A stretch of DNA of 64,000 bases from Amphiscolops sp. MND2022 (GCA_964187785.1 OZ076409.1:55430001-55494000); one strand, 5' to 3'; shown: positions 32,452-64,000, counted from the stretch's first letter. Made by a program: numbers and translations. Notes: a model not told the origin generated them from the letters alone.

Positions 32452-34273
32452 GTGAGTTCATAAACCTTGGAAACACTATGGTTAACATTTATATCAATAG
32501 GTAGAGATTTTGTTCTAATTTGAGATACTTTCAAGAAAGTTGTCAAACATCAATTGGTTATGGTTTCATGTAACAAAAAGAAGGTTTATTTTCAAGTTTC
32601 AGCTCGGCTGTGTTGTCACACTATTTTGATTCGTTACTGATAAAAACTTGCAAAACTGTGCTGTGATGAAATTGGCCTTTACTCTGGCATTGTCAAACAA
32701 TTTTTGAAAATTCTTATGTCTTCTGATCCGCTACCCACGCCTCAAAGTGCCTTATATCCAGATCATCCATTACACATCGTGGTTGACATTTGCTCTTTTG
32801 ATTGTAAATCAATGGTTGTCTCTTCTGCTGGGCAATTGTTCTGGGCATTGAAACGTGTTATTTCTGATGTTCCTCAAAGGTCTCTATTGAGCAGTTTAAA
32901 ATGCCGATGATTCTCTGGCTCTAACAAATACCATCACCATCTGGAAACACCTCGAGCGCTGTTGCTTCGGTGACACACGTTCACTACCAACACTTCAATA
33001 CTAAATGTCACTCAATGATTCTCTAAAACTGGTATTTTTTCTTTGTTTTTTTCTTTCATTTCAAATACGCAATTACACTTGAATAAGTAACTTTCTATGA
33101 AATTTGCTTTTTCTTTGGTAGTCTTTTCTTTAATCTACGCTTGTTACACTCGCATACTTTTATACTTATTTACATTTCAGATTTTGCAGGTTTGACCTCA
33201 ATTTCCGTCTAAGTTACATTCATTTTTATGAAGTGCATCTTTGAAGAATTATTGACACGGTGAGGCGGACAGAAGCTTTCTCAAAAAATACCTTTAAGCA
33301 TATAAAAAACTCTGCTCTTCTGGAGCTTTAAGCGCAGCGTTGACTTCGACCGGTTAAATTGCGCTTAAGGCAAAAATGTTGTTCTGTCATATATCAGAAA
33401 TTAGGCAGAGAGGCGGAAAATTTTTTTTCATCTTAGAATTTCTTCAAGGAGCTGCGGGGTTCTCTCCTATAGAGATTCTCTGGATAGTGAGAGTTGATGT
33501 TTTGGATAATCAATTAGAGTGTTTCAGGTAGTATGATGTATTTACAAAACATGAGATGAAGTTTACCATAATTCGATGATTGCGTCAAAATAGCGAAAAG
33601 AAACGTCAGCAGTTTGGTTGAACGTTTTTACGATTCGCTATTTATCTCGGTTTTCTTTTGGGGTCCATTTCTAGCGATACAGAGGCTCCCTTATCGTAGG
33701 CGTGTTTATCTGTTATTGCCTGCAACATCTGATAGGTCCACGTCTGTCCTAAGTACATCTGAACAAAAATTTGTACATGATTCTTGAGTCATGACACTAC
33801 CCACAATTGAGGATTGCAGAATGTCACCGTCAGCCACAAATAAGAAATAACCATTAGTACTCGAATAGTCGACACAAAAATCCGGGAAAAGAAATGAGAA
33901 AATTGTAAAAATGTGGAAAAATAGAGTGCCTCAGAATATGAAAAAGAGCCTCCTTATGAATACAATAAACACTAAAAAAAATGGCCTGAAAAAATTCAAA
34001 ATATGCTATAGTGTTCATTCAAAATGGATGCTGTTTTGTTCAAAGAAGGTTTGTTGTTCTAATTTTTGATTAATGGAGGAGTATAAAGTCTTTATGCTTT
34101 GTGATGTTTTATCACTGACGCCGGGAGGCGTGCGGCCCGCACGTGCCTGAAAGTAACTTTGCCTCATAAGTCAGTTTCCTGTGTGAACTAAATGAGCCTA
34201 CTTCTTTTAAGTGATTAGTTTGTTTGTATTGTTCGCTGAGTTCTACCTTCAGGTACTTATGTTTACAAACAAT

Positions 34274-39742: not shown

Positions 39743-41249
39743 TCTGACGAAAGTTTGTTATTTGAAGATGGATTTTCTTCATTAAATGTTGTATCAGCTT
39801 AATTTGGGTGCGCCCAATGATCCTTCTGCTGACAGCTTCTGCGCAAAGATACTCGATTGTCGTGTTTTCTGGCTGTGTCATCAAAAATTCTTCTCAATTT
39901 GATGGGCATTGTGGAACTTTCCTCGCACGATTTCACTTTTTTGGCTGAGAAAATGAGTGTTTGCAATTAAGAGCACTGGTCGTTCTGGAATCTCTCATGG
40001 AGTGCGGCTAGGGAGAGATCGTAGTCAGTTCTGGTAGCTTCCGGCGGTTGAATGTTAACGCATCAACCTTAAGGTGCAGATGCAGATATTGATGACGTTC
40101 AATAATGGCAATGTCTGCGATTTGCATGCAGCTTTATTTGAAGTTTTCTTTTTCTGTACCCTCGAACCAATGAAGGGTTGATGATTGACAAAATTTGGAT
40201 TGTGGCATTTTATAATGAGAGGTTTTAATTTGCCGCGTGAGTTTTGCTTTGTTATGTGAAATCTGTAAATTTTTATTCAGTTGAAACGAAATTTCTATTT
40301 TATTCAGCAGCAGAAGTGAAGATACTACCTCTCCATAGTTGGAGGTTTTGTGATTGTAGGTGGAGTACACTTATCGTCAAGAAAGTAGTACTTGGGCATT
40401 GTTGTAGTTATTTAGTGATTGTTTTCTAGAGAGGAGGAGAATGGCCCCTGTCACCATGTCATAGATCTGAAATTAGGCAGAGCTGAGGAGACGTTTTATT
40501 ATTCTTGGTATTTCTTTACCATAATAAGTTTACCATAATTCAATGATTGAGTCCAAATAGCGAAAAGAAACGTCAGCAGTTTGGTTGAACGTTTTTACGG
40601 TTCTGTAGTTATCTCATTTTTCTTTTGGGGTCCATGTCTAGTGCTACAGAGGCTCTCTTATCGTTGGCGTGTTTATCTGTTATTGGCTGCCCTATCTGAT
40701 AGGTCCACGTCTGTCATTGTTCATCCTGTTTTCTTTCTACAGTGACCAACTACAAATTGATTTCAATCAAAAACGGCTCGATAAGCACGACCGCATGAAA
40801 AACACGCTTGTGTGCACATCAAACTGTTCGCTTCAGCACTATGTTCAATCTTCAAAAACACTTTCGCTACTTCGCACCACTTTGATTTTTTCTTACACTG
40901 GTTGAGACTCTCTGAACGTTTTACAAGATGTTAAATGTTACCAAGCAAATTTATCAAGATTTTGCAGAACTCTCGAGAAAACGTCTAAGCATCAAAAGTT
41001 CACTGAATTGCGTGAATTTTAGCAGTCTGTCTGAAAATTACACCCTAAACTTCGCAGCAAATCGGTGCCACGATGTTTTGCAACTTTCAGTATGCAAAAA
41101 TTCTGTTTTCGAATGCAGCTGATAAGCTGAATCTTTGGAAATAACAGATCTCCTAATTACTAAAATTGATCTTTGAAGAAATTTTAGTGACAATCAAACA
41201 TTTATGAAATTTGTGAGGAGGATAGTTATACCGAGATTGTTACATATTT

Positions 41250-43892: not shown

Positions 43893-44327
43893 GACAAGAC
43901 TATAGGTCCCTCCTTGAATCTTTTCGGCATTGTGAGACTTTTTTCGAATTTTTTTCCTCTAAAGCTCCCTCAACTTTCTTCGATGCTTTGCGGCAGAGTG
44001 GTTGTTGAAAAAACCCAAAGGGTCCCCCATTTCAATTTTTGTCAGCACCGTGAGACTTTTTTTAGTGTTTGTTCTCGCCGAAGTGTCCTCCTGTCAAATT
44101 TGTTTGTTATTTTGCAGGAAACTGATGTTTTAAAAAGCCAAAAAAACTTCCCCTTTCAAGTGTTTCGGCACTATAAGACTGTTTCGAAATTCTACCTTTT
44201 TGTTTTTCAATCGAAAACTTTTAAATGTCTCCATAGGATTCAATTCATATTTGGAACAAACAGGATTTCCAAAAAGCTCAAAGGACCCGCTTCAACTGTT
44301 TTTTTTGCGCTTCTTGGATATAGCGCC
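43893..44327 (+). mobile_element. Interspersed repeat (family of 21985-22364) interrupted by the Gypsy insertion
   Basis: Shared subrepeats; breaks after GATATAGCGCC, whereas the copy near 22330 continues GATATGGCGCC-GAC. Confidence 0.65.
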
Positions 44328-46523
44328 TGTCACGACCCGCTCCCGGTTGTAATTTCACCTGCTGTTCTGGGATACCCGGGTACGGAGGAGGACGAGGCAA
44401 CGGCTTTTGCAAGTATTACTAAACTAGTTTAATTTTAACTCAATCAAATGTTTTACAGTACAGCTGAATTTTCCTGTTTAATGTTTTCACGCGTAACGCT
44501 ATTTTCATTTCCTCTATCGTCTTTTGAATTTTGTCTTGCTAATCTAAACATTAAAACAAAAACATTTTCTAATTGGGATCATTCTTCTTCTGTTCCACAC
44601 TAAAATGAAAACATCAAAAAAATATTTAACTCTGAGATCCCAGCGGAGTGCATACGATCTATAATGAAAAACATACAGAATATAGGGGAGTTATTTCTCC
44701 AGTATTAGAGTAGTTGTCAATATTCACTTGAAGCCTCAGTCAAGTGATTTTAAGCAAATGTTTACAACGTTATGACAGCGTCAGTCAAATGAGCTAATAC
44801 TAGTTGTTTCTATATTTACGGACCAATAGCGTCACTCCTCAACTGAACTATTTAGGCTTGCGCGGATAGAATTAAGCTCGGTTGCCCCTAGCAACGCCAA
44901 TTAGCTAAGAGAAAGAGAATGAATTCGCCTACGCGCTCTGCTTTCCTCCGCCGCTCAGCTATAACTAATCATAATACGTACGGAGCGGCTACGGAACGGA
45001 TTGTAAAGTTGTATTCCGCTGGTTAGCTATAACTAATCTTAATACGTACGGCGTGGTTACGGAGCGGATTGTAAAACTGTAGATATGAAGTATTGGTACA
45101 AAAGGAATTATGACAAAGTCTCCTGTTTTGAATCGACGCATTTAAGTGATCTTTGGAATAGGATTTCACATGAAGAAAAATTGTACTGTAAGAATAACCG
45201 AAGTATTAATTTGATGCTGCCAAATGTGAAATACGATTGACTTACGTTGCAATTTACTCATCAACAAAATGGTTTCGATCGAATAGCTTCATTTTATGGA
45301 AGATACCTTGTGGCAATGAAATAGAAAAATGCAGCGTAAGATTAACGCACTTTCCAAATGCCTTCTTATAATTTCCTGTGTTTGTGACACTACCATAGTC
45401 ATGAGTTGCTACCTATTGGATACCAGTCTGTTGTCTGTTTTGATAAGTGGAAACTTTTTACACTATTCTCCTAATTTCTATGGAAATGATGTTTTGTACA
45501 AACGGGTTGTTCCCGTTGTAACCGTTAATGTTTGTGTTTAATCCATACTAGTGCTAAAGGTATGGTGAATGTTTGTTTAAGTTATCAATTGCAATATGCC
45601 GTTTCAGCATCGTTTGTTCCTTTACAGTTTTTAGGTATTTCCCATTTTTAATTTCCTATACTCCGTTTCATTTCTCTCAATATTTTTGAGCGTCATACTT
45701 TTGCTTCGAACATTAATTCCTAACTTGGGAAGTGACTATTTGATCACGCCGGCGTGTCTTCGTCGATGAAAATTTCAGCTAGACCTTTATTTTATCGCAA
45801 TTTTGAGACTTAAACAGGAAATGGAATTGCCTGAACAGAAATGATTTCAACCAGTATTACGGAATAACGACACAACTAGGAATTTTGATACCTAATTTTA
45901 TGACCCGGGCTGAAATAATTTGAATCATAAGCTCATTTTGATGAACAAACCTGATTTTTAAGATACCTAGGAATTTTTAGGTGAGAAACAAATGATGCTG
46001 GAAGGGTATAAATATGTAAGACTTTCATGTAAAGTTAGTTAGTTTTGTGATACCGTACTGCTTAAACTGTTCCGTTAAAACAACGAAAATACCTTCTTCG
46101 AAGAAATTAACATTGTCGAAGGTTTTGAATTTTCAACCTGAAAAATGACAACTAGAAGCCAAAAGAGGAAAGCTGTAGCTGAGCTAGTTTCTGGAGATTT
46201 TGAAACCCCTGTAAACGAGAATATCACGTCTGAGGATTTAATTGCAGGCCCTAGTAAAACTCTCAGGATTGAGCCAGAAAACTTAGACCAAATAAAAACG
46301 TCTTTGAGGAATGAAATCCTATCTGACCTGTCAAAAATATTAGCTGAGAACCAAAAAGAAATGCTTAAGTTGATAGCACTTTCGAGTAAAAAACGCCCCC
46401 TCTGTACTAATGACCAGGAATCTGATTCTGAACCTGAAAACATCTCCGTTGCTAGAACGTCAACACCTGCCAAAACAACAATTGCGACTAGCTGTAGAAC
46501 TACCCCAGTAAGTAGTCGTAACA
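44328..46523 (+). repeat. 5' LTR (about 2.2 kb)
   Basis: Matches 63154-64000; termini TGTCACGAC / GTCGTAACA are an 8/9 inverted repeat; followed directly by TGG. Confidence 0.8.
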
Positions 46524-47603: not shown

Positions 47604-48494
47604 CACGCCATCGAAGACCTCCCAAATAGGTACGAAGAGGATTTTTTCACAGAATGCAACGAGGAATCAACCCAGGATTGGCAATGTCGCTGGAACGTAG
47701 GCAAGATACTTAGACACAATGCTAGACACCCAGAAGATCCAACACCACTACCCCGATGGATAACAGAGTCGCCCGATAATTATGCGACACTCAAAAGACC
47801 TCTGACAGAATCAAAAACCGAGCGCATTTACATATATGACAGAGACTATAGATGTGATCCTTGGGACGAACCAACCCTCTATGACACAAATAAACTCTCT
47901 TTCAAAATCCAGGTTCCAAACCCTCAAGCACAATCCACAGAAACTACAAAGTTACCATCACCGCCGTCACCAATTCTGACAAAGGCAACACCGTCCCCGA
48001 CAGAACCCGTCACCGTCACGTTCACACCGATAGATGCAGAGAACTGCAGAGAACATCATCTGCATCGAGGAAAAAACAGTATGGGCACAACAAGAAAGAG
48101 AAAAGCGAGTAAAATCCAACCCTACCGCATCACCTCCAAAAACCGCACCCGCTTCAGCAATGACAAACGAAGACGAAGAAATAACGGAATGTCCTTCAAA
48201 ACTACCCGAAGATCTAGATGTCATCAAAGAATTCATCCAGCACGCACGACAAAGATGATGACTACATTCCGCTAATGCCTGCAATTGCCCTCAAGAAGAA
48301 AAAACGAATGCTCTTTTTACCAGTTGAATTCAACACTGTCAAAATCGACGCTTTAGTCGACTCAGGTGCGTACATTAACGCTATTAGTGAAAGGGACGCC
48401 GAAAAACTTCGACAGAATGCAAGTCAATGCATCGTCAACAGAGCACCCCCACCCCCTTTCAAAGTGCAGGACGCTAACGCCGAATTGGAACAAC
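47565..48494 (+). pseudogene. pol: Gypsy pol 5' part with aspartic protease N-half
   Basis: ALVDSGAYINAI (DSG at 48359-48367); interrupted at 48494. Confidence 0.88.
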
Positions 48495-49513
48495 TGTTGG
48501 CGCCAGTCATCAGAAGGCAAAGAAACTCGATTCAGAACATGCTGGTTGAGATACAAGAACTTAAACTCCTAAAAACTTAGAAGAAATTTTGAAGAAATAT
48601 CAAGTGTGACAAAAATGGAAACCCCCCCAAATGGGTTTTCTCCAAGAATACTAACCCTAGAGCCACGAAACTTGGCACCCGTATGCAGATACATAACACA
48701 AACACACCAGCCAAGTTTCAAGGTCATCCACCCATTATAACCCCCTTTACCCCTCACATGTGTAGTATTCAAGGTCATTGAGACAAAAAGGTAAACTTTG
48801 TTATTTACCTATATGACCACATTAGAATGTAACTCTGTTGATTAATGATATTTACATTGTGTAAACATACTTTCTAACCCACCTGATTAACATGCCAAAA
48901 CCACCACATAGTTTGTTTACTTAGCCAATAACTTCATTTTATGCTTTAAATGTCATTTATTTATACAACATATTTTTACTGATATTTGCTTATATTTACT
49001 GTAGAATTGTAAACGATATGTATACCATTATTAGACAGAAATTTTCTCGACTGAATAGCTATAGTCAAGTTGGGTCTCAGGACCGCGAGACTAATTAATC
49101 AACTTCTCAATCTTCACAACTTTTCGCTAGAGTTAGAGCGACTAAGTAGCTACTCTCATAGTTGGAGAGCCGGAGCGCGTGAATATACTGTGAGGGAAGT
49201 GTGTGCAGGATCACATCGGATCCAAATCAGTGCAAAGAGGAATCGCAGGAGGGATCGCAGCCAAAAGATACAGTCCTTTAAAACAAGAAACTAGGATTTG
49301 TTTAGTAACGGTCCACAGTACTAAGCAACGGATCAGGGCGGCGTAAAGTTTGTCAAGCCTCAGCGCAGGATAAGGGCAAGCAGCCGTTACATTTGGTCCG
49401 CCGACCCGGACAACTCGTTGGTGGACGACCCGGACTAGAAGAAGACGACTCGTTGGTGGACAACTGAGAAGATAGCCCAAGAAGAACAAGTGTCTGGATC
49501 TTGGAGTCTCTGA

Positions 49514-49680: not shown

Positions 49681-50296
49681 CTTTAGCGGCACTCTGGAGG
49701 TATTTGTGCATCAACTCTAGTTTTGAGACGAATTGTATTCTTTGGGAACGTATTCCTGATTGAAGCAAAGATCTGGTCTAAGACGTCATTGCAAGTAAAT
49801 CCACCAAGTAAAGCCAAGGGATCAAGTCAGAGAGACAAGATCCACCGAAACAATCAAGTTCGTCAAAGAAGGCAAGTATAATCGACAGTATTGGGTTGAT
49901 TCTTCAAGAATTGGCGATTGACTACCGGATTGAGCTGTTGACACTTTGTATCTGAGAAATTGCAGAGTTGGGAAAAGTGACAAAGCCTACAAGGAACAAT
50001 TGTGAAGTTCGAAAGCCCTCAGTGGAACAAAAGAGTCATATGAACAAATGAAAGCCAAAAAAAAGAAAAGCAAGTGATGCAGCACCCTCGAATGACAAAT
50101 GTGTTTGAAGGAAGAAACACGAAGCAGAGCCAACAACTGATGGAAATCAGACCAAAAGAGTTGGAAAATGTGTCAATTGGTACGCATGGAGCCTCTATTG
50201 GAATACTGGACCCCTACATGTGGAAAAGCTCCATACGTTAGTAAAAGACTTGGATGACAAGCTCGATGAGGAAAGAGCTGTTGTATCCAAAAAAAC

Positions 50297-52516
50297 TTGA
50301 TTGATTGGGTAATTGAATACCGCGAGAGAAGACAGCCATTGCTGTTCTGTGTAGACTTTATGTTGAGTCTTACAAATGAAGAAACGCAAAGAAAGCTCAG
50401 TCGAAGTGTGACTGAATGGGACGAATGCTTTGCGAAACTGGAATCGAGTTGGGGATATTGGTTCCCCGATGTGCAGCAAATGTTGAAGTGTCCAATTGAT
50501 GGGACAAAAAAGTTGAAATTGAGTCAGATGACAAATGGAACATCTGCAGACGCAGCTATGAGATGCCATCGCAAAAGAAAGTTGAGGCAAAGACCTGTCC
50601 ATCAGGCAAAACCTAATTGTGTAAAAGAAACAGCTAGTGAAAAGGAATCACTGACACGGTCAAGAAGGACCAATGACCAAGAAAGTTGCTCTGGTATGAA
50701 AGACAGCATATCTGAAGTGGAAAACTCTATCAACGATGTGACATCACTACTCGAAGAAAACAGTAAGGTGTCTGACGTAACAATCCAGATGGACAACAGA
50801 ACAACAGTTAACACGAAGTGGTCTAATGGAGATCGACTGTTTCCTCTAGCATTAGAGAAAGCGGAAGATCAGAAATCGGATGAAGTCCAAGGCCAAAGAA
50901 GCGAGACTGGACAATTGGAAATAGGGGAACTGGGCAAACATCCACAACTGGTTGAAACCAGAAGCAACAGAAGCTCAGTGATTTCGAAAAGTTCAAGTGC
51001 TAGACGAGTTCTTTATTTGAAAGTAAAAGCTCAGAAAGAGCAAGAAGAACTGCAAACCCGACTCGAGAAACTAAAGCGTGAAGCAATACAAATGGAAATA
51101 GCTGACTTGCATGAACAGCTTGCCCACAAAGCCAGAATAGCTGAAAAGGAAAGAGAAATAGCGGAAGTGTCGAGCAATCAGGGGACTAGCTTCCCAAGTG
51201 TCTCATCAGTCGACAGTTTCACGGAAGACTCAAGATGCATGGATGAGACAGAAACAGTCGAAGACGGGGCTAAGTCCAATATTGCACTATCAGTATATTC
51301 GAAATCAGAGAATGCAGTGAAATTAGTTCACGAAGGAAAGTTCTCCGCGCTTAGGAGAGACTCAAAACCTCCCACAGAAGCCGATGGGCAAGCTGATTGG
51401 AAAGACAGAACCAATGCTGTCAACGGAACATGCAGACAAGGAGCAACAACACAACCAGACGTGAAAGTTGCGAACAACGGAACCTCGAAGTTCCTCACAG
51501 CGGAAGGCATACAGAACTGGTCAAAAACATTCATTGTATACAACAGTCGGCAAGACGTCCGTTCAGAAACACTTCTCATGGATACCAAACAGGCTTTGGA
51601 AGAAAAGGTTCACATGTTCATCAGTGAGCAATCAATAGTGCAAACAGAGGAGATCTTGAAGTACACATTGACGGAAACAAGGAAGGAGCATAGATTCTTA
51701 TCATTCGCATCTAGCAAGCAAACTTTGGGAGAATCGAGTGTCCAACTTGAACTGCTGCAAGAGAGTGCAGAAAATACCGCCGTACAACAGGACATACAAC
51801 AAGGGAAAATATTCGAAGTGACGATGTTTCATGACAGTACTCTACTTCTTGAGGAAGGAAACAAATGTTTTGAATTCGACAAAAGATATGGATTTGTGCA
51901 TGAGCAACAATTTGCACTGCTTGATGATTGTAATGAAGAAGCAATGTATCGAAAGCTATGCCATGTTGCAGCGAAACATGACAAACCCGTTGAATGCAAT
52001 GCCAAAGGTGAAACACGTACCATGATTGTAACCTTTGGAAAGAAATTTGATTTTGACTTCAAAGTAAGCCTTGTAGAAGAAACTATCCCGAGTAATAACG
52101 ATGTGTGGAACCCTCGGATTGGTAATGGAAACTCTGGGATGGACGCGGTGGCACAGGCTAACGGCATGGATAAAACTCAATTGAGCAAAGGCCACCGCAA
52201 GCGACCGAAGAAACAAGCTTGGATGTTTGAACATAGCTCAAACCGATTACATGGAATGGTTGAAAGTGTTCAATTGACAACTGGCATCCTATATGCAAAG
52301 ATTGTGATTGATGAATTTGCAGATGAAATATCGCTAATAGAAACGCGATTGGGTTCTTCAAAAGCCCGAACAACAACAAGCTGTAAAATTGAGCCTTGCA
52401 TAGGGCCGACCGCATCATGGGAAAAGGTGATGATGCAACGTGACTCTTTTGGAAAATGCATCAAAGAAGGAGTTCGACAACTTGAAGTCAACGATTCGGT
52501 TTGGATAGTGGATTAA
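50297..52516 (+). CDS. BEL/Pao-derived ORF (gag-like coiled coil fused to pol remnants)
   Basis: 739 codons without a stop; E/K-rich heptads; ends in a Pao integrase-tail-like sequence. Confidence 0.65.
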   Translation: MIDWVIEYRERRQPLLFCVDFMLSLTNEETQRKLSRSVTEWDECFAKLESSWGYWFPDVQQMLKCPIDGTKKLKLSQMTNGTSADAAMRCHRKRKLRQRPVHQAKPNCVKETASEKESLTRSRRTNDQESCSGMKDSISEVENSINDVTSLLEENSKVSDVTIQMDNRTTVNTKWSNGDRLFPLALEKAEDQKSDEVQGQRSETGQLEIGELGKHPQLVETRSNRSSVISKSSSARRVLYLKVKAQKEQEELQTRLEKLKREAIQMEIADLHEQLAHKARIAEKEREIAEVSSNQGTSFPSVSSVDSFTEDSRCMDETETVEDGAKSNIALSVYSKSENAVKLVHEGKFSALRRDSKPPTEADGQADWKDRTNAVNGTCRQGATTQPDVKVANNGTSKFLTAEGIQNWSKTFIVYNSRQDVRSETLLMDTKQALEEKVHMFISEQSIVQTEEILKYTLTETRKEHRFLSFASSKQTLGESSVQLELLQESAENTAVQQDIQQGKIFEVTMFHDSTLLLEEGNKCFEFDKRYGFVHEQQFALLDDCNEEAMYRKLCHVAAKHDKPVECNAKGETRTMIVTFGKKFDFDFKVSLVEETIPSNNDVWNPRIGNGNSGMDAVAQANGMDKTQLSKGHRKRPKKQAWMFEHSSNRLHGMVESVQLTTGILYAKIVIDEFADEISLIETRLGSSKARTTTSCKIEPCIGPTASWEKVMMQRDSFGKCIKEGVRQLEVNDSVWIVD

Positions 52517-52579: not shown

Positions 52580-52998
52580 ACAGTATGGGCACAACAAGAA
52601 AGAGAAAAGCGAGTAAAATCCAACCCTACCGCATCACCTCCAAAAACCGCACCCGCTACAGCAATGACAAACGAAGACGAAGAAATAACGGAATGTCCTT
52701 CAAAACTACCCGAAGATCTAGATGTCATCGAAGAATTCATCCAGCACGCACGACAAAGATGACGACTACATTCCGCTATTGCCTGCAATTGCCCTCAAGA
52801 AGAAAAAACGAATGCTCTTTTTACCAGTTGAATTCAACACTGTCAAAATCGAAGCTTTAGTCGACTCAGGTGCGTACATTAACGCTATTAGTGAAAGGGA
52901 CGCCGAAAAACTTCGACAGAATGCAAGTCAATGCATCGTCAACAGAGCACCCCCACCCCCTTTCAAAGTGCAGGACGCTAACGCCGAATTGGAACAAC
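52580..52998 (+). repeat. Duplicate of host Gypsy segment 48076-48494
   Basis: Near-identical copy including the DSG protease motif; about 5 substitutions by eye. Confidence 0.95.
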
Positions 52999-53903
52999 TG
53001 TTGGCGCCAGTCATCAGAAGGCAAAGAAACTCGATTCAGAACATGCTGGTTGAGATACAAAAACTTAAACTCCTAAAAACTTAGAAGAAATTTTGAAGAA
53101 ATATCAAGTGTGACAAAAATGGAAAACCCCCCCGCAAATGGGGTTTCTCCAAGAATATTAACCCTAGAGCCACGAATCTTTGCACCCATATGCAGATACA
53201 TAACACAAACACACCAGCCAAGTTTCAAGGTCATCCACCCATTATAACCCCCTTTACCCCTCACATGTGTAGTATTCAAGGTCATTGAGACAAAAATGTA
53301 AACTTTGTTATTTACCTATATGACCACATTAGAATGTAACTCTGTTGATTAATGATATTTACATTGTGTAAACATACTTTCTAACCCACCTGATCAACAT
53401 GCCAAAACCACCACATAGTTTGTTTACTTAGCCAATAACTTCATTTTATGCTTTAAATGTCATTTATTTATACAACATATTTTAACTGATATTTGCTTAT
53501 ATTTACTGTAGAATTGTAAACGATATGTATACCATTATTAGACAGAAATTTTCTCGACTGAATAGCTATAGTCAAGTTGGGTCTCAGGACCGCGAGACTA
53601 ATCAATCAACTTCTCAATCTTCACAACTTTTCGCTAGAGTTGGAGCGACTAAGTAGCTACTCTCATAGTTGGAGAGCCGGAGCGCGTGAATATACTGTGA
53701 GGGAAGTGTGTGCAGGATCACATCGGATCCAAATCAGTGCAAAGAGGAATCGCAGGAGGGATCGCAGCCAAAAGATACAGTCCTTTAAAACAAGAAACCA
53801 GGATTTGTTTAGTAATGGTCCACATTACTAAGCAACGGATCAGGGCGGCGTAAAGTTTGTCAAGCCTCAGCGCAGGATAAGGGCAAGCAGCCGTTACAAC
53901 AAC

Positions 53904-56900
53904 CACTCGCCACGTACACCCTACGTTTCAAAATAGGGAACTACACCTTTGAAGAAACGTTCATTGTCATGAACCAAACATCATTCCCCATAAAAAGTTT
54001 AGCGTTCCTCCGAAAACACGCCGCAATCTTAGACACTGCACAAGGGACAATTGACTTCCCGAAGATCCAAATCACGATGGCGCTCACCGACGAAATGCAA
54101 AAGTGCAACCCCAAGCCCATCATGATCAAAACAGACTCAAAACATACGATACCTGCAAATGCCACACGCATCATCTACGCATCAATACCAGTGAGTACCG
54201 AATATCCAATAACCGGAACGATTCAACCCCTACCACAATTTGACGAATGTTCAAAATTAATGATAGCTCCGACAATAACATCTGCCAGAGATAAAAAGGT
54301 GGCAATAAAGATCGCCAATACAACAGATTTTCCTTATACAATAGCTACACACACCAAAGTAGCTGAACTACAAATTCTCAAACCAGAAAACCAAGAAACG
54401 AAGATGATCCGCCCAGTCGAAATTGCCGCTCTCAACCTCCTCACAGAACACGACGATGTAGTAACGTACATCAATGCACTAATGCATGTAGAACGACCGG
54501 AGGATAATGAAGAAAAATGCTGGTTCCCAACCCCAGAAAACCCCGGCAATGAACAAGAACATTCGCCCATACAAAAGCGAATTTTAAAAGAACTACGGGA
54601 ACTCGCCGAACTAGAAAAACTTGATCCAACTGAAAACGACGAATTCCGAAACAAGTTCTTTGCAATGTTCAAATGGACCAACTCACTAATCATGGGAAAA
54701 GACCGTGATAACCTAGAAAACACCATTGTCGAATTCCATGACATCTTCGCCCGTCACAGACTGGATATTGGAATGAATACACAGTGTAAAGTCAGCTTAA
54801 CTCCACAAGACGACAAACCATTATACACACAAAGCCTACCAGTCTCAATCAATCTCAAGGAAGATCTAACGGTAGAACTGGCCCTCATGCATAGAGACGG
54901 CATAATCACAACTCTCCCATTCTCCAAATGTGCCAGCCCCATATTCGCACAACGGAAACCCAACGGCAAGCTGAGACTATTGGTGGATCTGCGAAAAACC
55001 AACGCCCTTATTGCAGATGACTACATCAACAACAACCACCCCGTCAGCACCCTCTCAGATGCGGCACAACATCTAGCGGGAAAAAACTGTTCTGCAAACT
55101 CGACTGCTCCCAGGCGTATCACTGCCTCCAAATGGCAGATCAAAGGTCAGTAGAATTACTTGCTTTTAACTTTGCTAGTAGGACGTTTGCCTATCGTCGC
55201 CTGGCACAAAGACTAAGTAGAACCCTGTAAGCCTTCTCAAGCTTCATGCGGGAGTACCTCGACTCAGTCATCAAAGCAGATCAGTGTGCACAATATGTCG
55301 ACGATATTGGCATAGCCGCAAGTATAACGGAACAACTCATCAAAAATATCAGAGCAGTCTTCAAATGTATACGAAGCGCGGGACTAAAATTGACCATTGA
55401 AAAAATCCATTTTGGTGTCACGCAAGTCGAATTTCTCGGTCGAACCTTCACCCCAGACGAGTAGCCCCGTAAGATCGAAAAGTCAAAAACTTTCTCTCAA
55501 AAGTTCGATTCCCGAAATCTAAAAAACAAGTCCGAAAATACATTGGTCAAATACTACCGAAACTACATACCGCGTCAAAAAGGTCATTGGTATGTACGAA
55601 GTGCTAAAAGTTGACTCCAGAATCTCGGAAGAACTTGTCGACAACTTCAAAGAAATCAACGCCAGCCTAGCGGAAGCCTGCGGTCTTGCACTCAGACAAC
55701 CCATAGCAGGGAAACAGTACGTCCTAATGACGGACGCAAGTTTTCGAGCATCAGGCTACGCCTTAGTGATAGAAGAAATTGACGAAAGAAAACTCCTCTC
55801 CAAAAAACTTTCGCGCCTGTAGCGTTCGGGTCACGTGTTTTCTCACCAGCGCAACTAAAGATGTCTTTCTACTGCAAAGAGTTTTTGGCTATATGCCACG
55901 CATTCCTCGATTATAGTCACATCCTATGGGAAACAACGATACCAACGCTAGTTTTGACAGACAACCGTTCAGTAACAAGTTTTTTCGAGATAAAAACAAC
56001 GCCGCCTGCACCTTGAAATGCCTGCGACTATGTCCCCCAATTTAAATTTCGAATCATGCGCGTAGCAGGCTCCCAGAACACGGCAGCAGACTTCCTCTCA
56101 AGACTCGAACTCACTCCAAAAGAAAAAGTACAACTAAAGTTAAGAGACGACATCTTAACGGCACCAATAGAAGTCAACTTACAATCATCAGATGTCGCAG
56201 ACGAAGAACAACTTTTCTTCCTGCCAGATGACGAAGAAGAGTCCGAACAAAAAATTTTTGCCAGGAAAGCACAAAGTAAACAACGCGCTCAAGAAGGACT
56301 TGAAAAACACTTAGCAACAAAAGTAACTGAAGTCATAAAGATACCTCTCAATTCAGCAGTCTACTCGTTCGGCTCAATCAAGGAAAATGCACGGATCAGA
56401 AACGAGCAAGATGCAGATCGCTTCCTTAAAGCGTTGAAACAACGGATATCACATGAAGAATACGACAAGCATCTCCTTAAAAGTGAACCAAGAGGACGGA
56501 ATCTTTTACGTCACGAAGTAAGAATCATAATGAAAGATGGAGTCCTAATGCGGAAGTACTACGGAGAAGACGTATTCACAGAATTTTTGTCCACACTACA
56601 TGGAAAAACGAACAAACATCCAGGAATAACGAAGATGATACAGGATTGTGGAGCCAAATACTACTTCCCGGGATTAGCAAGAAAAATCAGAGCCTGGGTA
56701 ACAAACTGCCCAGATTGCATCGCCAACAAGAGAATCGACACGAGACAAATACGTCCCAAAATGCTGAGCAACACTGAATTCACAATGGGACAAGAAGACT
56801 GCCTAGAAGTTGACATATTACCAAATTTACCATCATCCAATGGATTTCAACACATAATCACAAAGATGGATGTCTTCTCACTTTACCTTTTCGCATACCC

Positions 56901-58136
56901 AACTCAAGATATGACAGCGAGGACAGTGGCCCGTTGCATAATCGACGTAATGACACGACATTGCTATTTACCAACCGTCAAATTAACAGACAAAGGATCA
57001 CAATTCAGATCAGAAGTGGTCAATCAGATAGCCCAAACTCTAGACATACGCATAAGCCACGCATCGACGAAACATGCACAAACACTAGGCATACTAGAAA
57101 GAACGCATGCATCTCTGAAGACTTCCCTAAAAATATCAACGGGAGAAAGACGTTCAATGTGGCACAAATACGTCCAAATAGCAGTCATGAACAACAAAAC
57201 AAGCTATCATGAGAGCTTGGGCTGCGAACCTAGAACAGTGTTTCACGGACGCATTCCGTACAATAACTTAGACATCAAACTTGGATTAAAACCTGAATGG
57301 AAAAAGAACAACAACGAAGAATTAACGGTAGAACTACAGAAACAAATAGCCGAGATCCATCAAGCCGCCAAAGAGAATCTGAAGCAATCATATCTCAAGT
57401 ACAAACAATACTACGACAAGAAAGCAACTGCTACGCATCTCAAGGTCAACGACTACTGCTACGTTTTAAACCCGAAAGCGGACAACCAGTCAATGAAATT
57501 CGCTTTTAAAGATTGCATCTGGACTGGTCCTTACGTAGTCGTCAAAGTGTTTTCCAACAACAATTATGTCGTACATCGCACGGGTACACGATACACGCAA
57601 ACCCTCCATAGAATTCGCCTCAGGCTATATGCACCCAATCAGCGAGTACCTGATGTACCAGTCAGAAGGGAAGCTTACCTTCCAGATCCTGAGGTCAAAA
57701 CAACCCATAATGATTGGTACGCGCAAGCTTGGGAAACCGAATTCGGAGAAGTTCTGTTCGGTACGCCTACGGAAAATTCAATGGAAGAAGCTACAATCAC
57801 GGAAATCACAGACAGGACAGAAAATGACGCAACTACAATGGAAAATGAAGTGGCTAAAACAGCCACAGTTGAAATTTCTGATGGGGATAAAACATCCTCC
57901 GATAACGTTACGTCATTTAATCTGGACGTCAGTGACAATCCTTACAATTTGACTCCACCGCCTATTCAAAGCGCCCCCCCAAAAAAACTCCTGAACTACC
58001 TTCTATAGTTGTTGGATACAATCCTAGGAAAGTGGGAAGATACAACTTACGACCTAACCCGAAATCCAATGCAAATCCCGACTTCAGTATGCTCGACTCA
58101 CTGACTACAGAAGACTTACGTCAAACTCATAACTAG
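53904..58136 (+). pseudogene. pol: Gypsy pol: protease C-half, RT, RNase H, integrase
   Basis: LRLLVDLR, YVDD at 55294-55305, LMTDASF, HPGITKM...CPDC, TDKGSQF, ILERTH; several stops and frameshifts. Confidence 0.95.
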
Positions 58137-58309: not shown

Positions 58310-61300
58310 TTAATTCTTGGCAACTTTCTTCAATTTATGAAATACTTCAGGATCCTTATCTTGAGGTTGAGGCTTTTTCTTTTTCTGGGACGTTTTCGGT
58401 GTTTTTCCTTTCGAGGAACATTCACCTTTTTCAACAGATTTTGAACTCCGCTTTGTACTCGTTGTACTGGCCACTTCATCACTTTCCTTCCCACATGAAC
58501 CAGAAGTACTTCTCACCACGGAACTAGATCATGAACCCTAATCCACACGTGCCAATCGATTGAGCCGGTTATACTCGGCATAATACTCGCCACTCGCACG
58601 TCGTCGCTCTTCCAGGAACTCATCATAAAGACGACAGAACGAGCCAAAAAAGGAATCCACGCCAGGACCACTCAAATCTGCCCACACGTTGAAGTCCGTT
58701 CCAATAAAGTCCTCCTCAGTCCACACCCACTCAAATCCACAGAAAACCAAGGATATTCGCGATGCGGCTCTCCAACAACCAAACAGCACAATTCAAAATT
58801 GCGCAGAACATGGCATCGCGATCGGAATGAGAAATTGTCCAACAAATAACGGCGCACATCCGGAATGTCACTAGCTGAATGTTCCAAGCGACAAGGCTGT
58901 CTCATTTTCTCAATAATGTAGGAATTATACTCATCCTGAGCCGCTTTAACTTCATCACTGGCAACAGATTTGCATCACTCCAACACACGACACAGCTCGG
59001 AGAACAACTCAAACGCAGCATTACCGTCACCTTCTAACATTAGCTCCGGACAAAAACTGTATAAGCCTTTCGATACTACAGGTTTGGCACTGGCACTCTC
59101 CACAATCAGAACAGCAAGACGGTCAATGAACTCTCTGCAACGAGTCCGAAAATTCGCCATCTCACTCGTCTTCACAGACAACAGACTTCTACCGAAATCA
59201 CACTGACCCAGGAAATTCTCCAGAGCTATAGCGGAAAAACCAGAAATCTTGTCGACGTCCATGTAATCCTCCCATTCGTGGATACCAGGTAGTCCGGACA
59301 ATTCTCGTGTCTTCATGAGGAAACAATACACGAAGTTGCACATCTCACCGTAATTGTGAAATGCGTAATCGTTGCGTTTCTCTCTCAGCTTGGGCAGATG
59401 AATATAAACTGAAACATCAAACAATCAATACTAGCCTATATCAAGAAAGGGAGGACACAACTACGTTACAAGAACTACACCTCTCCCAACCATGCCCAAA
59501 CATTATCACAACCATTCTACTTACAAATATCCAGCATCAACTGCAGTATTCCAAAACGGTACGCCACCAATCTGTCGGAAATCAATGTATGGTCCATCCC
59601 CCTCAACTGAAAGACAACACAAGGACGTCACCCCAACGGAACCATTGAACCAGAACCAAAAAACCAACAACACACAAGACAAACACAATAGACAAACTAC
59701 AACTAACACTATCAGGATGACCTTTCACGTGTGGTAGCCCAGTTCAACGGATGTAAGGACGAATTGACGTCCACAAGTCTATCGGGTCAGTCAAAAGCTC
59801 ACGAAGATCTTCAAAGAAAACGAATCCCTGGCGGACACACGTTCGGAGAAGAACTTTTCAGACGAATGACAACATAATCCACTCAGCTGGTTACTTCCAC
59901 CATCCCAAAGACGTCGTGGTGGGCCTGCCTCACACACTGCAAAAAGACTTCCTCTGTAAACTGAAGATGAACAACAACTCGTTTTCCATCATTCCGATTG
60001 TCCTCTATAACCCGAATGAGGATCGGATTTGCACCACCAATGCACAAGGGCAAACGCGCATTTGGCAAACTATGGACAAACTGAACCACAGGAACAAGTT
60101 CAGAGTTTGGCATAGGTTGATCTGAAGGCTCTTCGCCAATGCAGATCCGCTTCAACGAAATGTTTAGCCAGCACATAATGAAACATCGCTCAACATCCGC
60201 ACCCCTCTCATAGCACAGTCCATACTCGTTACTTCAACCCACAGCACTAAAGACAAGCCGTAATACACGTGGAGCAAGCGCTTGGCAAATTATCGCCTGC
60301 AAGTAACAACAACACAGTTATGCGAGTCAGGAAAAAACAGGAAGCAAAATAAAATTCCCCCACCCACAAAAAAAACTTTCATTGGAAATGAAAGAAACGA
60401 GGAATGATGCTTACCACTGTCTCAGTTCGACTCCAACTCATCCTATATTCAGGATCACTCTCTTCCAGAGAAGCACGAAAGGTAGCCCATAATCGGCGCA
60501 ACAGAGCAAAGTCTCCACCACTCCGGAGCCACTCACAGACGCACGAGATTAACGTCATAAAAGTAACTTTTGACCCCACCTGAGAGTGTTTTGGCAGCAA
60601 ATCCTCGGGAAAAGGAAACCCTTCCGCTAGGTCTACAAACGTTCGTGACTTGAAATCAACAATCTGACTAGCTGACAGCTCCATAGGCTCTAGAAGCCTA
60701 TTATACACAGGCAACTCCATGTGCACTCGGTAGCTCACGTCCCTGTACCAGTGACCGTCTGAAGAAAAATGCCTCTTGAACTCACCGGCACCATGGGCTC
60801 TCATCCGCACATCCCGTTGACACACACGACAAAAGAAGAAAGTAGGCTTGCCGCACTTAGAACCACTGACAAAATCGGGATAGATCGGGAGCAAAGCCAA
60901 CATTCGCTTATGAAGATGCTTGTGACTACCATAAGTTCGCACTCGCCGCTGATCACCAATCTTCTCTGAAAGCTGTTAAAAGCCTGCAAACAACACAAAA
61001 AATCTCCAGCCATAAGACAAACGACTTTGAAACTACCCACCCCATACCAACGAACGAAAAACGATCGAACAACGCCCAACGCATGAAACATGAATCAATA
61101 CAAACCTGTTTCAATGCTCTGCACAGTACGACTCTCCACCTCCGCGACAAGTTGACGTCCCAAACGCGCCAAATCACCAGGGCTCAGAGGACTGCCACTA
61201 GAGAAAAGAGGAAGATTATCTTCACAACCTGCAACAATACACAAACCCTTTAACAAATAGCCCAACCAACAGCGGAATGAAAATACACAGCAATATCAAG

Positions 61301-62022
61301 TGACAACAAACTACCGTTCAGCAGAAGATACTAACTGCTTAAGCCCCCTTCCAAAAGATCGTGAAGCGTTGGACTCCCGGTGTCTATCTGACGAACGACT
61401 GGCTCAGTAAATCCAACGGTTGTTGCTCGTGCTCGCCCCGTCTTCTTAGGAGTCACCGGAGTAGCTCCGTCTTCCTCCCCCTCATGATCACCATCTTTTG
61501 AGGAGGGCGGATCAGCCTCGGCTCCCCGAGGCTCAATTCCAACATTTCTTTCAAGTAGGGACTGCTTGCTTTCCTCAATCTGCACAGGAACGGTGACTAC
61601 TGGAGATGAATCCGAGACAGTCTCGGGAAGAACAGAAGATGTACTACATCCAGCCCCAGGAAGAACGGATGCCAGGACAGTACTAATAGTTGCGGCAGGG
61701 AATACCTTGGAAATAGCCGGAAGCCTCGGGCAGTACAGAATTTGTACCAATGTTGAACCCGGGAAGAGTAATGGGTTGAGTTACTGAAAATCAAGATCTG
61801 GTTCAGACGCGTCAAAGAAATCGGGTGAGACTACAAAACCTGATCACCAAAACCGTAGTCCAATCACCCATGAAGGTCAGAAAGATTTTACCAACCCGTA
61901 GTGGGACGAGAAATTTCCACGTCAGAATGAATCACATCATCGTCAGTTAAGTTAAATGACGTCTCATTTCCGCTAACAAATCCCGCAGAAGTACCGGGAG
62001 GAGGAACAGCATCTTCATCCAT
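58310..62022 (-). pseudogene. Seven-exon antisense gene inside the Gypsy element; zinc-finger, hAT-transposase-like protein of about 1030 aa
   Basis: Exons 62022-61896, 61830-61336, 61228-61106, 60983-60415, 60296-59708, 59606-59525, 59408-58310; six GT-AG introns of 65-122 nt with matching phases; scattered stops and frameshifts. Confidence 0.8.
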
Positions 62023-62575
62023 GAATAGAAGAAATTTTCAAGGCAATCTAAAGGAAAAGAAAAATCAAGAAAGAAAAAACTACGCTATGTGAACGCAAAT
62101 ACTCAAAAAAAAATTTACAACGTCACCCCTACGTATTCAGGAAAGATACACATTCTTCAACTTCACTGAAAGGCCTAATGAGGCATTGACGAGAACAAAA
62201 CGTTTCCAGAAAAAACCCTACTGGTGAATAGAAGTTCATCAAGAAGCTCTGAAGAAAACCCTCTTAAAACCATTTTAGAAACTACGTTTCGTGAACGTAA
62301 TCCTTTTGAGGAAATTGATGACGTCATGACGACGCTGATGAAAGAAAACGGAATTAGGATGAGGATTTCCTATTTTGACCAATCACAGAAAAGATTAAAG
62401 TTCGTCGCCTTAGAAGGTCAGCACGGACCGGAACGAAAGCGGAAAAACCGACCAATAAAACTTCGAGGAAAACTACGACAGAAAGAAAATTGAAACGTTC
62501 ACTCGTCGTTCAATTCCACTAATAGCAGGTTGGAAAATAAATCGCAAAAGAAATTCGTCAAACAAAACTACTAAA
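62023..62575. promoter_or_regulatory. Putative bidirectional internal promoter
   Basis: Lies between divergent ATGs; ATGACGTCAT palindrome at 62318-62327; CCAAT at 62379 and 62452. Confidence 0.5.
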
Positions 62576-63263
62576 ATGAGCGGATATTCGTTGGTGATTG
62601 ACATCTCCTCTGATGAAGAAGAAAGGCGACAAAGCACCACTATCAAAGCACTGCCGCTAAATATGGTCAGGGCGCTTAATATAAGCGATTCCTCAGTTGA
62701 AGTGTTGAGGGGAAGCGATGCGGATATGAACTCTGCGTCCGAAACCGAATGAAGACTGGAGTCAGCCCTGAAAAGAACAAAAAGAGAAACGGAAAGGTTA
62801 CGTTTAACCTACCTCCCGCAGTAAAAGACTTGAAGACAGACTCAGATACGGATGAAAACTACGAAGAGCCGGACACCCCACGGAAACAGTCCCCCCAAAG
62901 CCTTCATTTGTGAAAGACGTCTTCCCCATACACAAAACTGCAAAAGATTACCTGAACAACCTAGAAAGGCCTACAGCAGACAAACTAGCGGCAATGTACA
63001 GCTCAGACGACGAGAAGGACGTATACATGTCTGTTGGACGCGGACGTGGCCCGCATATCCTAAGAAACTACTCCGGTCGGCCTGCAGTGAGAGTAACAAA
63101 GGAGATCCCCCACTGCCACGGACTACCTACGTGCCTAGCAACAAGAGGGGCCCTGTCAGGACCCGCTCCCGGTTGTAATTTCACCTGCTGTTCTGGGATA
63201 CCCGGGTACGGAAGGGGACGAGCAACGGCTTTTGCAAGTATTACTAAACTAGTTAAATTTTAA
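62576..63263 (+). pseudogene. Small sense accessory ORF running into the 3' LTR
   Basis: MSGYSLVIDISSDEEERR...; broken by a stop and frameshifts; last piece is ORF 62910-63263. Confidence 0.55.
63140..63150 (+). promoter_or_regulatory. Polypurine tract
   Basis: AACAAGAGGGG, 3 nt before the 3' LTR. Confidence 0.7.
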
Positions 63264-64000
63264 CTCAATCAAATGTTTCACTTACAGTACAGCTGAATTA
63301 TCTGTACATATGTTTCCAAATCAAAATTTAACGCAAGCGTCACGGAATATTTTCAGAAATGATTTAGGACTAGCCAAATATTCCGGTTTAATGTTTTCAC
63401 GCGTAACGCTACTTTCATTTCCGGAATCGTCTTCTGAATTTTGTCATACTAATCTAAATATTAAATCAGAAACATTTTCTAATTGGGATCATTCTTCTTC
63501 TGTTCCACAACAAAATGAAAACATCAAAAAGTTATATTTAACTCCGAGATCCCAACGGAGTGCATACGATCTAAAATGAAAAACATACAGAACATAGGGG
63601 AGTTATTTCTCCAGTATTTGAGTAGTTGTCAATATTCACTTAAAGCCTCAGTCGATTGATTTTAAGCAAATGTTTACAACGTTATGACAGCGTCACTCAA
63701 CTGAGCTAATACTAGATGTTTATATTTTTACGGACCAATAGCGTCAATCCTCAACTGAACTTGCGCCGATAGAATTAAGCTCGGTTGCCCCTAGTAACGC
63801 CAATTAGCTAAGAGAAAGAGAATGAATTCGCCTACGCGCTCCGCTTTCCTCTTCGCCGCTCAGCTATAACTAATCCTAATACGTACGGAGCGGCTACGGA
63901 GCGGATTGTAAGGTTGTATTTCGCTGGTTAGCTATAACTAATCTTAATACGTACGGAGCGGTTACGGAGCGGATTGTAAAACTGTAGATATGAAGTAATG
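63154..64000 (+). repeat. 3' LTR (truncated by the window end)
   Basis: Starts TGTCAGGACCCGCTCCCGG and is colinear with 44328-45090; carries ~80 bp (about 63300-63380) absent from the 5' LTR. Confidence 0.95.

Follow-up and report, generated by a model that had tools for sequence, protein, structure and literature searches.

An intron-containing antisense gene with probable hAT transposase affinity in a clade of Ty3/Gypsy retrotransposons

The origin and function of the extra genes that LTR retrotransposons carry in antisense orientation are open questions, and both are raised by a 64,000-nt stretch of the genome of Amphiscolops sp. MND2022 (hereafter, the window), which is part of a 1.07-Gb eukaryotic assembly. 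A preliminary description, made without comparison to other sequences, reported an LTR retrotransposon in which scattered minus-strand reading frames between the integrase and the 3' LTR could be joined, through six short introns, into a single gene resembling those of hAT transposases. Is this a real gene, where did it come from, and what use would a retrotransposon have for it?

The element in the window is a decayed Ty3/Gypsy LTR retrotransposon (Table 1). Its two LTRs (2196 and 2276 bp) have TG...CA termini, are 95% identical over 2186 aligned columns, and are bounded by a 5-bp target-site duplication (TSD), within the 4–6 bp range, bearing out the initial identification; a primer-binding site (PBS) follows the 5' LTR, and gag precedes pol. 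The pol of the window copy is broken; that of a sister copy is open (1514 aa) and encodes protease, reverse transcriptase, RNase H and integrase, in the order that assigns the element to Ty3/Gypsy. Scans for tRNA genes and bacterial promoters were irrelevant or empty.

Table 1. Features of the retrotransposon and its antisense gene, in window coordinates
Feature	Coordinates	Strand	Remarks
Target-site duplication, 5 bp	44323..44327	+	same 5 bases recur after the 3' LTR, outside the window
5' LTR, 2196 bp	44328..46523	+	TG...CA; followed directly by a TGG PBS-like stretch
gag frame, 407 aa	46142..47362	+	DUF1759, zinc knuckle, weak Retrotrans_gag; start inside the LTR
pol	53816..58008	+	broken in window copy; PR-RT-RH-IN order seen in sister copy
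Integrase, part of pol	56017..58008	+	Integrase_H2C2, rve
Exon 1	61896..62022	-	starts at ATG 62022
Intron 1, 112 nt (corrected)	61784..61895	-	88-94% identity across three subfamilies, unlike other introns
Exon 2	61336..61783	-	acidic, low-complexity, fast-evolving; 11-nt deletion near 61717 in window copy
Intron 2, 107 nt	61229..61335	-	exactly absent from subfamily copy L041
Exon 3, 123 nt	61106..61228	-	
Intron 3, 122 nt	60984..61105	-	
Exon 4, 569 nt	60415..60983	-	C-x2-C-x16-H-x5-H finger at 60831-60751
Intron 4, 118 nt	60297..60414	-	
Exon 5, 589 nt (621 nt in open copies)	59708..60296	-	opposite first two catalytic Asp of hAT transposases
Intron 5, 101 nt	59607..59707	-	
Exon 6, 82 nt	59525..59606	-	same length in deep family L183
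Intron 6, 116 nt	59409..59524	-	exactly absent from L026/L040 subfamily
Exon 7	58310..59408	-	helical core and basic tail; 127-nt deletion at 58709 in window copy
Spacer between the two divergent genes	62023..62575	.	putative bidirectional promoter
ORF3, sense	62576..63263	+	broken here; ~225-240 aa in sister copies; end enters 3' LTR
3' LTR	63154..64000 (to 65429)	+	runs 1429 bp past window end

Exon–intron structure of the antisense gene

A DNA search of the genome, in which 40 of 1283 candidates were scored, returned at least 107 matches at 65–100% identity; 24 sister loci, including 15 young copies (L008–L022), were aligned to the window, and the proposed splice junctions were projected onto them. 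All six GT..AG intervals of the preliminary description exist at the lengths given there, with the donors GTTGGT, GTTAGT, GTTTGT, GTAAGC, GTTAGT and GTAAGT, and the acceptors of the young copies are all AG and the donors all GT except for one GC, with variable intron lengths. The first intron had been drawn too short, at 65 nt. This version was rejected: none of the 15 young copies is open under it (the first stop falls at codon 54 in 14 of them and at codon 18 in the other), and the window copy itself meets a stop by codon 54–59. Moving the acceptor to 61784, for an intron of 112 nt (61895–61784), leaves 10 of the 15 young copies open over 1065–1067 aa, the remaining five being broken or truncated, and none of nine older copies open. 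The coding sequence of the open copies is thus about 3.2 kb, not the 3.08 kb first estimated, with intron phases 1, 1, 1, 0, 0 and 1. The window copy contains several stops and, relative to its sister L008, deletions of 11 nt (exon 2, near 61717), 32 nt (exon 5, near 59852) and 127 nt (exon 7, 58709), which account for both the shorter estimate and its shifted phases; the agreement of phases initially seen at all junctions was in part a chance product of this decay, which, as had been recognized, the cassette shares with pol.

The junctions predicted in this way are supported by copies that lack individual introns. Both L040, with a frame of 1067 aa, and L026 are exactly without intron 6, and L041, open from exon 2 onward, is exactly without intron 2, with the adjoining exons in frame in each case. 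L026 is closer to L040 (74–77% identity) than to L008 (68%), so that the absence of intron 6 counts as a single event, and as a loss because the window copy, L008, L024, L041 and L183 all carry this intron. The deep copy L183, at 38–45% protein identity, shares the three intron positions of the core and the exons of 621 and 82 nt, and has an open core of 865 aa. Splice sites that are kept while intron lengths drift, the open frames, the low dN/dS values (see below) and the exact absence of introns in two subfamilies together indicate that the predicted antisense gene is a real, multi-intron reading frame, beyond what chance would produce.

The A/C-rich bias of the plus strand extends through the introns, as first observed (A 0.45 and C 0.27, against 0.31 and 0.18 in the flank). 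Intron 1, the conservation of which had not been noticed in the preliminary description, is non-coding in every frame, shows no sign of folding (z −0.95 to 0.33) and has no Rfam match. ORF3 had likewise not been noticed there. This sense gene evolves at a dN/dS of 0.14–0.26 and has no Pfam match, and in all five subfamilies examined it begins with an N-terminal hydrophobic-acidic motif that we take to resemble a SUMO-interacting motif. The spacer between the two genes measures 550–585 bp and contains one TGACGTCA and two or more CCAAT boxes in each of the four subfamily copies compared; no repeated binding motif common to the spacers of all subfamilies was found. As the antisense gene and ORF3 lie back to back, this arrangement suggests that they share one bidirectional promoter.

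Linkage, spread and selection

The antisense gene lies tail to tail with the integrase, which was found downstream on the opposite strand at 32 of 34 loci (the exceptions being L022 and L026) and at all five deep loci examined, that is, at 37 of 39 loci chosen among the top-scoring matches; the arrangement persists down to 38–45% protein identity. No terminal inverted repeat (TIR) was recognized around the gene, the longest inverted match between the flanks in the window being 9 nt, in agreement with the preliminary description. Comparison of 1065 codons by the Nei–Gojobori method yielded dN/dS of 0.16–0.22 in five of six pairs of young copies and 0.60 in the sixth, and the window copy compared with L008 gives 0.07 for exon 4 and 0.10 for part of exon 7. 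In comparisons across subfamilies, synonymous divergence has mostly reached saturation and the core exons are 51–78% identical at the amino acid level, exon 2 and the tail being the faster-evolving parts of the cassette. The gene is thus under purifying selection, with dN/dS of about 0.2 or less in most pairs. The sister-copy check proposed at the outset therefore turned out in favor of the gene, with the cassette at the same position, an intact spliced frame in most young copies and dN/dS below 1. Likewise, the linkage to integrase, the open frames, the purifying selection and the lack of a recognizable TIR uphold its reading as long-resident cargo as opposed to a fresh nested insertion.

Searches with three exon-7 queries, with 7500–8000 candidates each, returned 102, 121 and 95 matches, at nearly all distinct places as judged by eye, and 90 of the 102 matches to the first query contain no stop. 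An intact, intron-containing antisense gene is carried by a large clade of this genome's LTR retrotransposons. In public collections, an exon-7 profile retrieved 654 clusters at 50% identity; the 10 exon-7 clusters that were looked up, as well as the exon-4 and exon-5 matches listed, all consist of unnamed ENA proteins. Since two of these proteins have no match in this genome at E 1e-40, the gene family may extend to a second species. Searches for longer homologues of exon 7 found none, which is weak evidence, and no relatives were confirmed in JGI metagenomes.

Affinity of the protein with hAT transposases

The protein of an open sister copy has the acidic N-terminus (D+E 0.16) and basic C-terminal tail (K+R 0.25) first described, the former as an extension of 235 aa, and the C-x2-C-x16-H-x5-H finger begins where it had been placed, its ligands being kept in 93–97% of 121 alignment rows. 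This finger aligns with hAT fingers in hhalign at E 1.7e-4 and a probability of 49%. Pfam searches with the exons and homologues returned no family above cut-off, including Dimer_Tnp_hAT and PF04195, and PDB sequence searches gave no match at E below 0.02. The structural model of exon 7, which is not a closed domain, is all-helical (pLDDT 86), and Foldseek and VIA-align searches with it produced no match above background and listed no transposase; a single-sequence fold with a pLDDT of 39 was discarded. In the Atlas, the clusters nearest to exon 7 were FAM200/GTF2IRD2-like and hAT-dimer proteins (0.86–0.88), which serve as a lead only, and exon 5 was near only unnamed clusters.

Direct comparison was made with reference hAT transposases fetched from metagenomes using the motif of the preliminary description. 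One of these, L079, has a 602-aa frame in which Pfam recognizes Dimer_Tnp_hAT (E 4e-10), and the profile of exons 4–7 aligns with it from end to end, with 104 identities in 552 columns and a z of 9.7 over 30 block shuffles, all such z-scores being those of our own scoring scheme. The whole length scores z 5.8–5.9 against a narrow hAT profile and 4.5 against a wider profile that includes this genome's own L079 relatives, those rows alone giving 3.9; none of 200 shuffles reaches either of the latter values. As controls, pol and two unrelated proteins scored −1.3 to 0.3 and five Ac-type hATs −0.1 to 1.6; L076, which is truly related to L079 but has no finger, scored 0.9. For the core downstream of the motif used for fetching, z was 4.2 against L079, 2.9 against the narrow profile (one shuffle scoring higher) and −0.3 against the wider profile, and exon 7 alone reached 3.0 against L079. 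Local hhalign of the core exons was not significant, and with the full length the narrow profile did no better than shuffles. The gene product and L079 are collinear, presenting in the same order and spacing the finger, an RT[KE]..LAP segment, a hydrophobic strand that precedes the first acid, C..H, L..C..R and a late KLC helix. Many ordinary hAT elements reside in this genome, and its Ac-type members show no similarity to the gene product; searches of the genome with PF14291 and PF25431 gave no match and were uninformative, and the motif pattern found 7 matches against 19 for controls.

The resemblance to hAT transposases originally proposed thus has good support in the finger and the RT[KE]..AII...LAP segment and moderate support in the core, for which the evidence is weak when it is taken alone; overall, the gene product probably derives from a hAT transposase. 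The alignment also supports the suspected loss of the catalytic D-D-E site. Opposite these residues, in homologues, stand E in 90% (79 rows), G in 93% (117 rows) and D in 69% (85 rows, register uncertain), the registers of the first two columns having been set by eye, with no gaps. Because the catalytic columns read E, G and D or nothing, CxxH has become C-x4-H, TRW has become RQG, and ER.FS occurs in none of 108 rows, the protein is not a canonical transposase.

Possible roles in the retrotransposon

These observations suggest the following scenario. In the distant past, a Ty3/Gypsy element would have received a hAT DNA transposon, in reverse orientation, in the interval from pol to the 3' LTR. 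The transposon would have lost its ends, and its transposase gene, if such was its probable origin, became a retrotransposon gene at a fixed position and under selection. Introns antisense to the genomic RNA escape splicing from it; hence those of this gene would remain in the genomic RNA and be copied at each retrotransposition; they do persist across copies. Transcription would start in the internal spacer, in the direction opposite to that of ORF3, as the conserved CCAAT and TGACGTCA boxes suggest. According to the alignment, the protein retains the zinc finger, the transposase scaffold, the acidic disordered N-terminus and the basic tail, and has lost the D-D-E site, a combination that makes a nuclear DNA-binding regulator the likely role: the protein would enter the nucleus, bind the DNA of its own elements, and activate them or shield them from silencing, with ORF3 as a putative SUMO-binding helper. 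Exact intron loss could result from use of the spliced mRNA as a reverse-transcription template or from conversion by cDNA. The whole core of 750 aa is conserved, which is more than a simple DNA-binding activator needs and counts against a regulatory role. Taken as a whole, this chain, from a captured, catalytically dead hAT transposase to a putative nuclear DNA-binding regulator of the element, strikes us as plausible, with belief and doubt about equally balanced.

Two alternatives concern what the gene is. It could have been captured from the host or another source and share with hAT transposases the zinc finger alone, given that the core-only scores are weak or nil, that Foldseek and VIA-align list no transposase for the exon-7 model, which is not a closed domain, and that the homologues found are unnamed. 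The collinearity with L079 from the finger to the KLC helix, the z of 3.0 of exon 7 alone against the same reference and the independent Atlas lead nevertheless render such a capture rather unlikely. That the cassette is a neutral hitchhiker, namely, a nested hAT insertion, or an artefact of chance reading frames stitched together is hardly credible in view of the purifying selection, the open frames, the fixed position at 37 of 39 loci and the exact intron absence in two subfamilies, although the window copy is decayed, ordinary hAT elements are plentiful in the genome, and the choice of loci among top-scoring matches leaves room for free-standing copies.

Other alternatives accept the gene and differ on its role. 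The protein, or convergent antisense transcription as such, might repress or meter the element and thereby make a high copy number tolerable to the host: a SUMO-binding partner could bring in repressors, and about 300 bp separate the end of the convergent transcript from the stop of pol. Control by antisense RNA and double-stranded RNA is discussed for antisense extra genes in the accessible text of one review (PMC7264820). Yet many subfamilies have recently expanded with open cassettes, as judged by the proportion of stop-free exon-7 matches (90 of 102), and a dN/dS of 0.1–0.2 would be needless under control by RNA only; we consider self-limitation unlikely. We hold a role in integration to be just as unlikely. 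Conservation of the entire transposase scaffold and the basic tail would suit a protein that tethers the integration complex to chosen chromatin, aids nuclear entry or, as a transposase oligomer, bridges the cDNA ends, and nuclear-import functions have been suggested for antisense ORFs in the same part of that review (PMC7264820), but the gene is separate and antisense, with no sign of packaging, and the acidic disordered N-terminus would seem better suited to transcriptional roles. Finally, E454 (90% of homologues), D883 (69%), many further acidic columns and the conserved C545 and H550 could form the remodelled site (E...D with conserved Cys and His) of a nuclease that processes or cuts DNA for the element; with G in 93% of homologues at the second Asp column, R-Q-G in place of TRW and no recognizable TIR, such an activity is very improbable.

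As a putative regulator encoded by its own element, the gene has parallels among several known systems. Its position between pol and the 3' LTR is that of the antisense aORF class. In plant Retand elements, an antisense ORF at this position is standard, and in 97% of clusters it has a 'transposase 28' domain, whose function is unknown (PMC11963269, accessible part); the antisense gene of maize Grande is driven by a promoter of its own, and its product is nuclear (PMC7264820, accessible part). Like those of Retand, Grande and RIRE2 (TRP28, PF04195) and of the fungal Boty, as far as the accessible text describes them, the present gene is an antisense pol–3' LTR gene found in most copies, conserved and predicted to bind DNA (PMC11963269, PMC7264820); unlike them, it has no TRP28 match and combines 5–6 introns, about 1065 aa, the whole transposase span and a divergent sense partner. 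With hAT transposases that carry the C-x2-C-x16-H finger and a CGRTK motif (L079 being the one tested), presumably of the ZNF862/FAM200/Buster-like type, it shares finger spacing, motif order and overall length, but it lacks the D-D-E triad, TRW, ER.FS and a TIR, has the acidic N-terminal extension, and sits inside a retrotransposon. According to the available portion of one report, a transposase can activate its own copies, and loss of catalytic residues recurs among regulators that descend from transposases (10.64898/2026.08.24.746577). VANC, TnpA and host-domesticated transposases are similar in the available text in that the accessory protein is element-encoded, TnpA is traced to a transposase, and catalytic residues are lost (10.64898/2026.08.24.746577, PMC13547354). 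They serve DNA transposons or the host, whereas the proposed keeper here is a retrotransposon. HBZ of HTLV-1, which is spliced, and APH-2 of HTLV-2 are short bZIP-type proteins. Both are described, in the parts of the sources available, as antisense regulatory nuclear proteins encoded near the 3' LTR (PMC11963269), from which they are driven (PMC7264820); no homology with them is claimed. Among animal Gypsy elements with captured accessory domains, the accessible text describes, for the giant planarian Burro and for rotifer LTR elements with extra ORFs, accessory ORFs and domains within the polyprotein; a transposase-like antisense gene with several introns is not among them (PMC6431247). The 2020 review states, in its available part, that most antisense ORFs have no similarity to other transposons and are mostly of unknown origin, and urges a search for antisense spliced transcripts (PMC7264820). 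Within the literature covered, which took in few subscription papers and not Repbase, we found no LTR element whose antisense gene has several introns and the length of a transposase. Antisense extra ORFs in plant elements are thus already known, and what would be new here is the multi-intron, transposase-length variant.

A bolder version of the regulatory scenario, which we offer tentatively and regard as doubtful, is that this clade domesticated a transposase and built a two-gene counter-silencing module, consisting of a dead hAT DNA binder and a SUMO-motif protein under one bidirectional promoter, that drove the expansion of many subfamilies, with the antisense mRNA occasionally serving as a reverse-transcription template, which would explain the exact intron losses.

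Structure and selection in the predicted gene are solid; its hAT origin is probable, and its function hypothetical. The case offers a traceable probable origin, from a class II transposase, together with a full exon–intron structure that has survived retrotransposition, selection that is strong, and loci that number in the hundreds. It would carry the domestication of transposases beyond hosts, to a second class of mobile elements, in that one type of element may have turned the enzyme of another into its own regulator, and it makes directly testable whether retrotransposons in organisms other than plants encode sequence-specific regulators of their own. Annotation by the usual ORF-based methods would overlook such a gene, and others may therefore be hidden.

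Conservation of the first cassette intron

The first intron of the antisense, probably hAT-derived cassette has a length of exactly 112 nt and is 88–94% identical across three subfamilies, whereas the remaining cassette introns are only 46–70% identical between subfamilies. The intron showed no coding potential, no folding signal and no match in an Rfam search, and its conservation does not extend to the deep copy, L183. The conservation could reflect either a cis-element or recent exchange among subfamilies. In the subfamily copy L041, intron 1 is represented at the cassette 5' end by its first part only, and a splicing route that would keep the 5' end of this cassette open was not established; either a deletion in that copy or a different first junction would account for the partial intron.

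Features located in the window, in the deep copy L183 and on contig C13 of the same assembly (G000:C13)
Feature	Location	Size
Direct repeats flanking a G-skewed stretch	33385-33748; 40457-40715
gag frame, from its start in the LTR	46142-46523
Internal duplication	48076-49391; 52580-53898	1.3 kb
Frame in foreign stretch	50270-52516	748 aa
Cassette intron 1	61784-61895	112 nt
ORF3 end in 3' LTR	63154-63263
Two LTR repeats	63852-63986	67 nt each
Spacer motif array	L183:946-1263	23-32 nt per motif
Cassette copies	G000:C13:16514985; 16528946; 16542905

Coding sequence and repeats in the LTRs and spacer

Coding sequence is present at both LTR ends of the element: the gag frame starts ~380 bp inside the LTR and crosses the primer site, and the sense gene ORF3 terminates within the first part of the 3' LTR. 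The two LTR repeats are 88% identical, and their motif was also found in the young-subfamily LTRs, of which the remaining sequence is ~70% identical. In L183, a motif with ACGT cores is repeated five or six times, at 50–67-bp spacing, in the spacer directly upstream of the cassette ATG; this is a candidate binding array or, alternatively, a remnant of subterminal repeats. No such array was seen in the window and L040 spacers.

Rearrangement, related copies and other mobile elements

The copies of the internal duplication, 98% identical and taking in the protease start, enclose a 3.2-kb foreign stretch; its frame has no Pfam match, and its end looks BEL/Pao-like. Elsewhere in the window, the direct repeats, ~7 kb apart, are possibly those of another, older LTR element. 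Ordinary hAT transposases with long open frames are also present in the genome, in several families (L042-L046, L175-L182), none of which is a close cassette donor.

The three cassette copies on C13, with equal scores, on one strand and 13.96 kb apart, suggest a tandem array of elements. Within the young group, the ORF3 N-terminus occurs as two types that are 76% identical (L014, L018, L019 and L021 versus the other young copies), despite 97–98% cassette identity, which hints at either recombination or faster turnover of ORF3.
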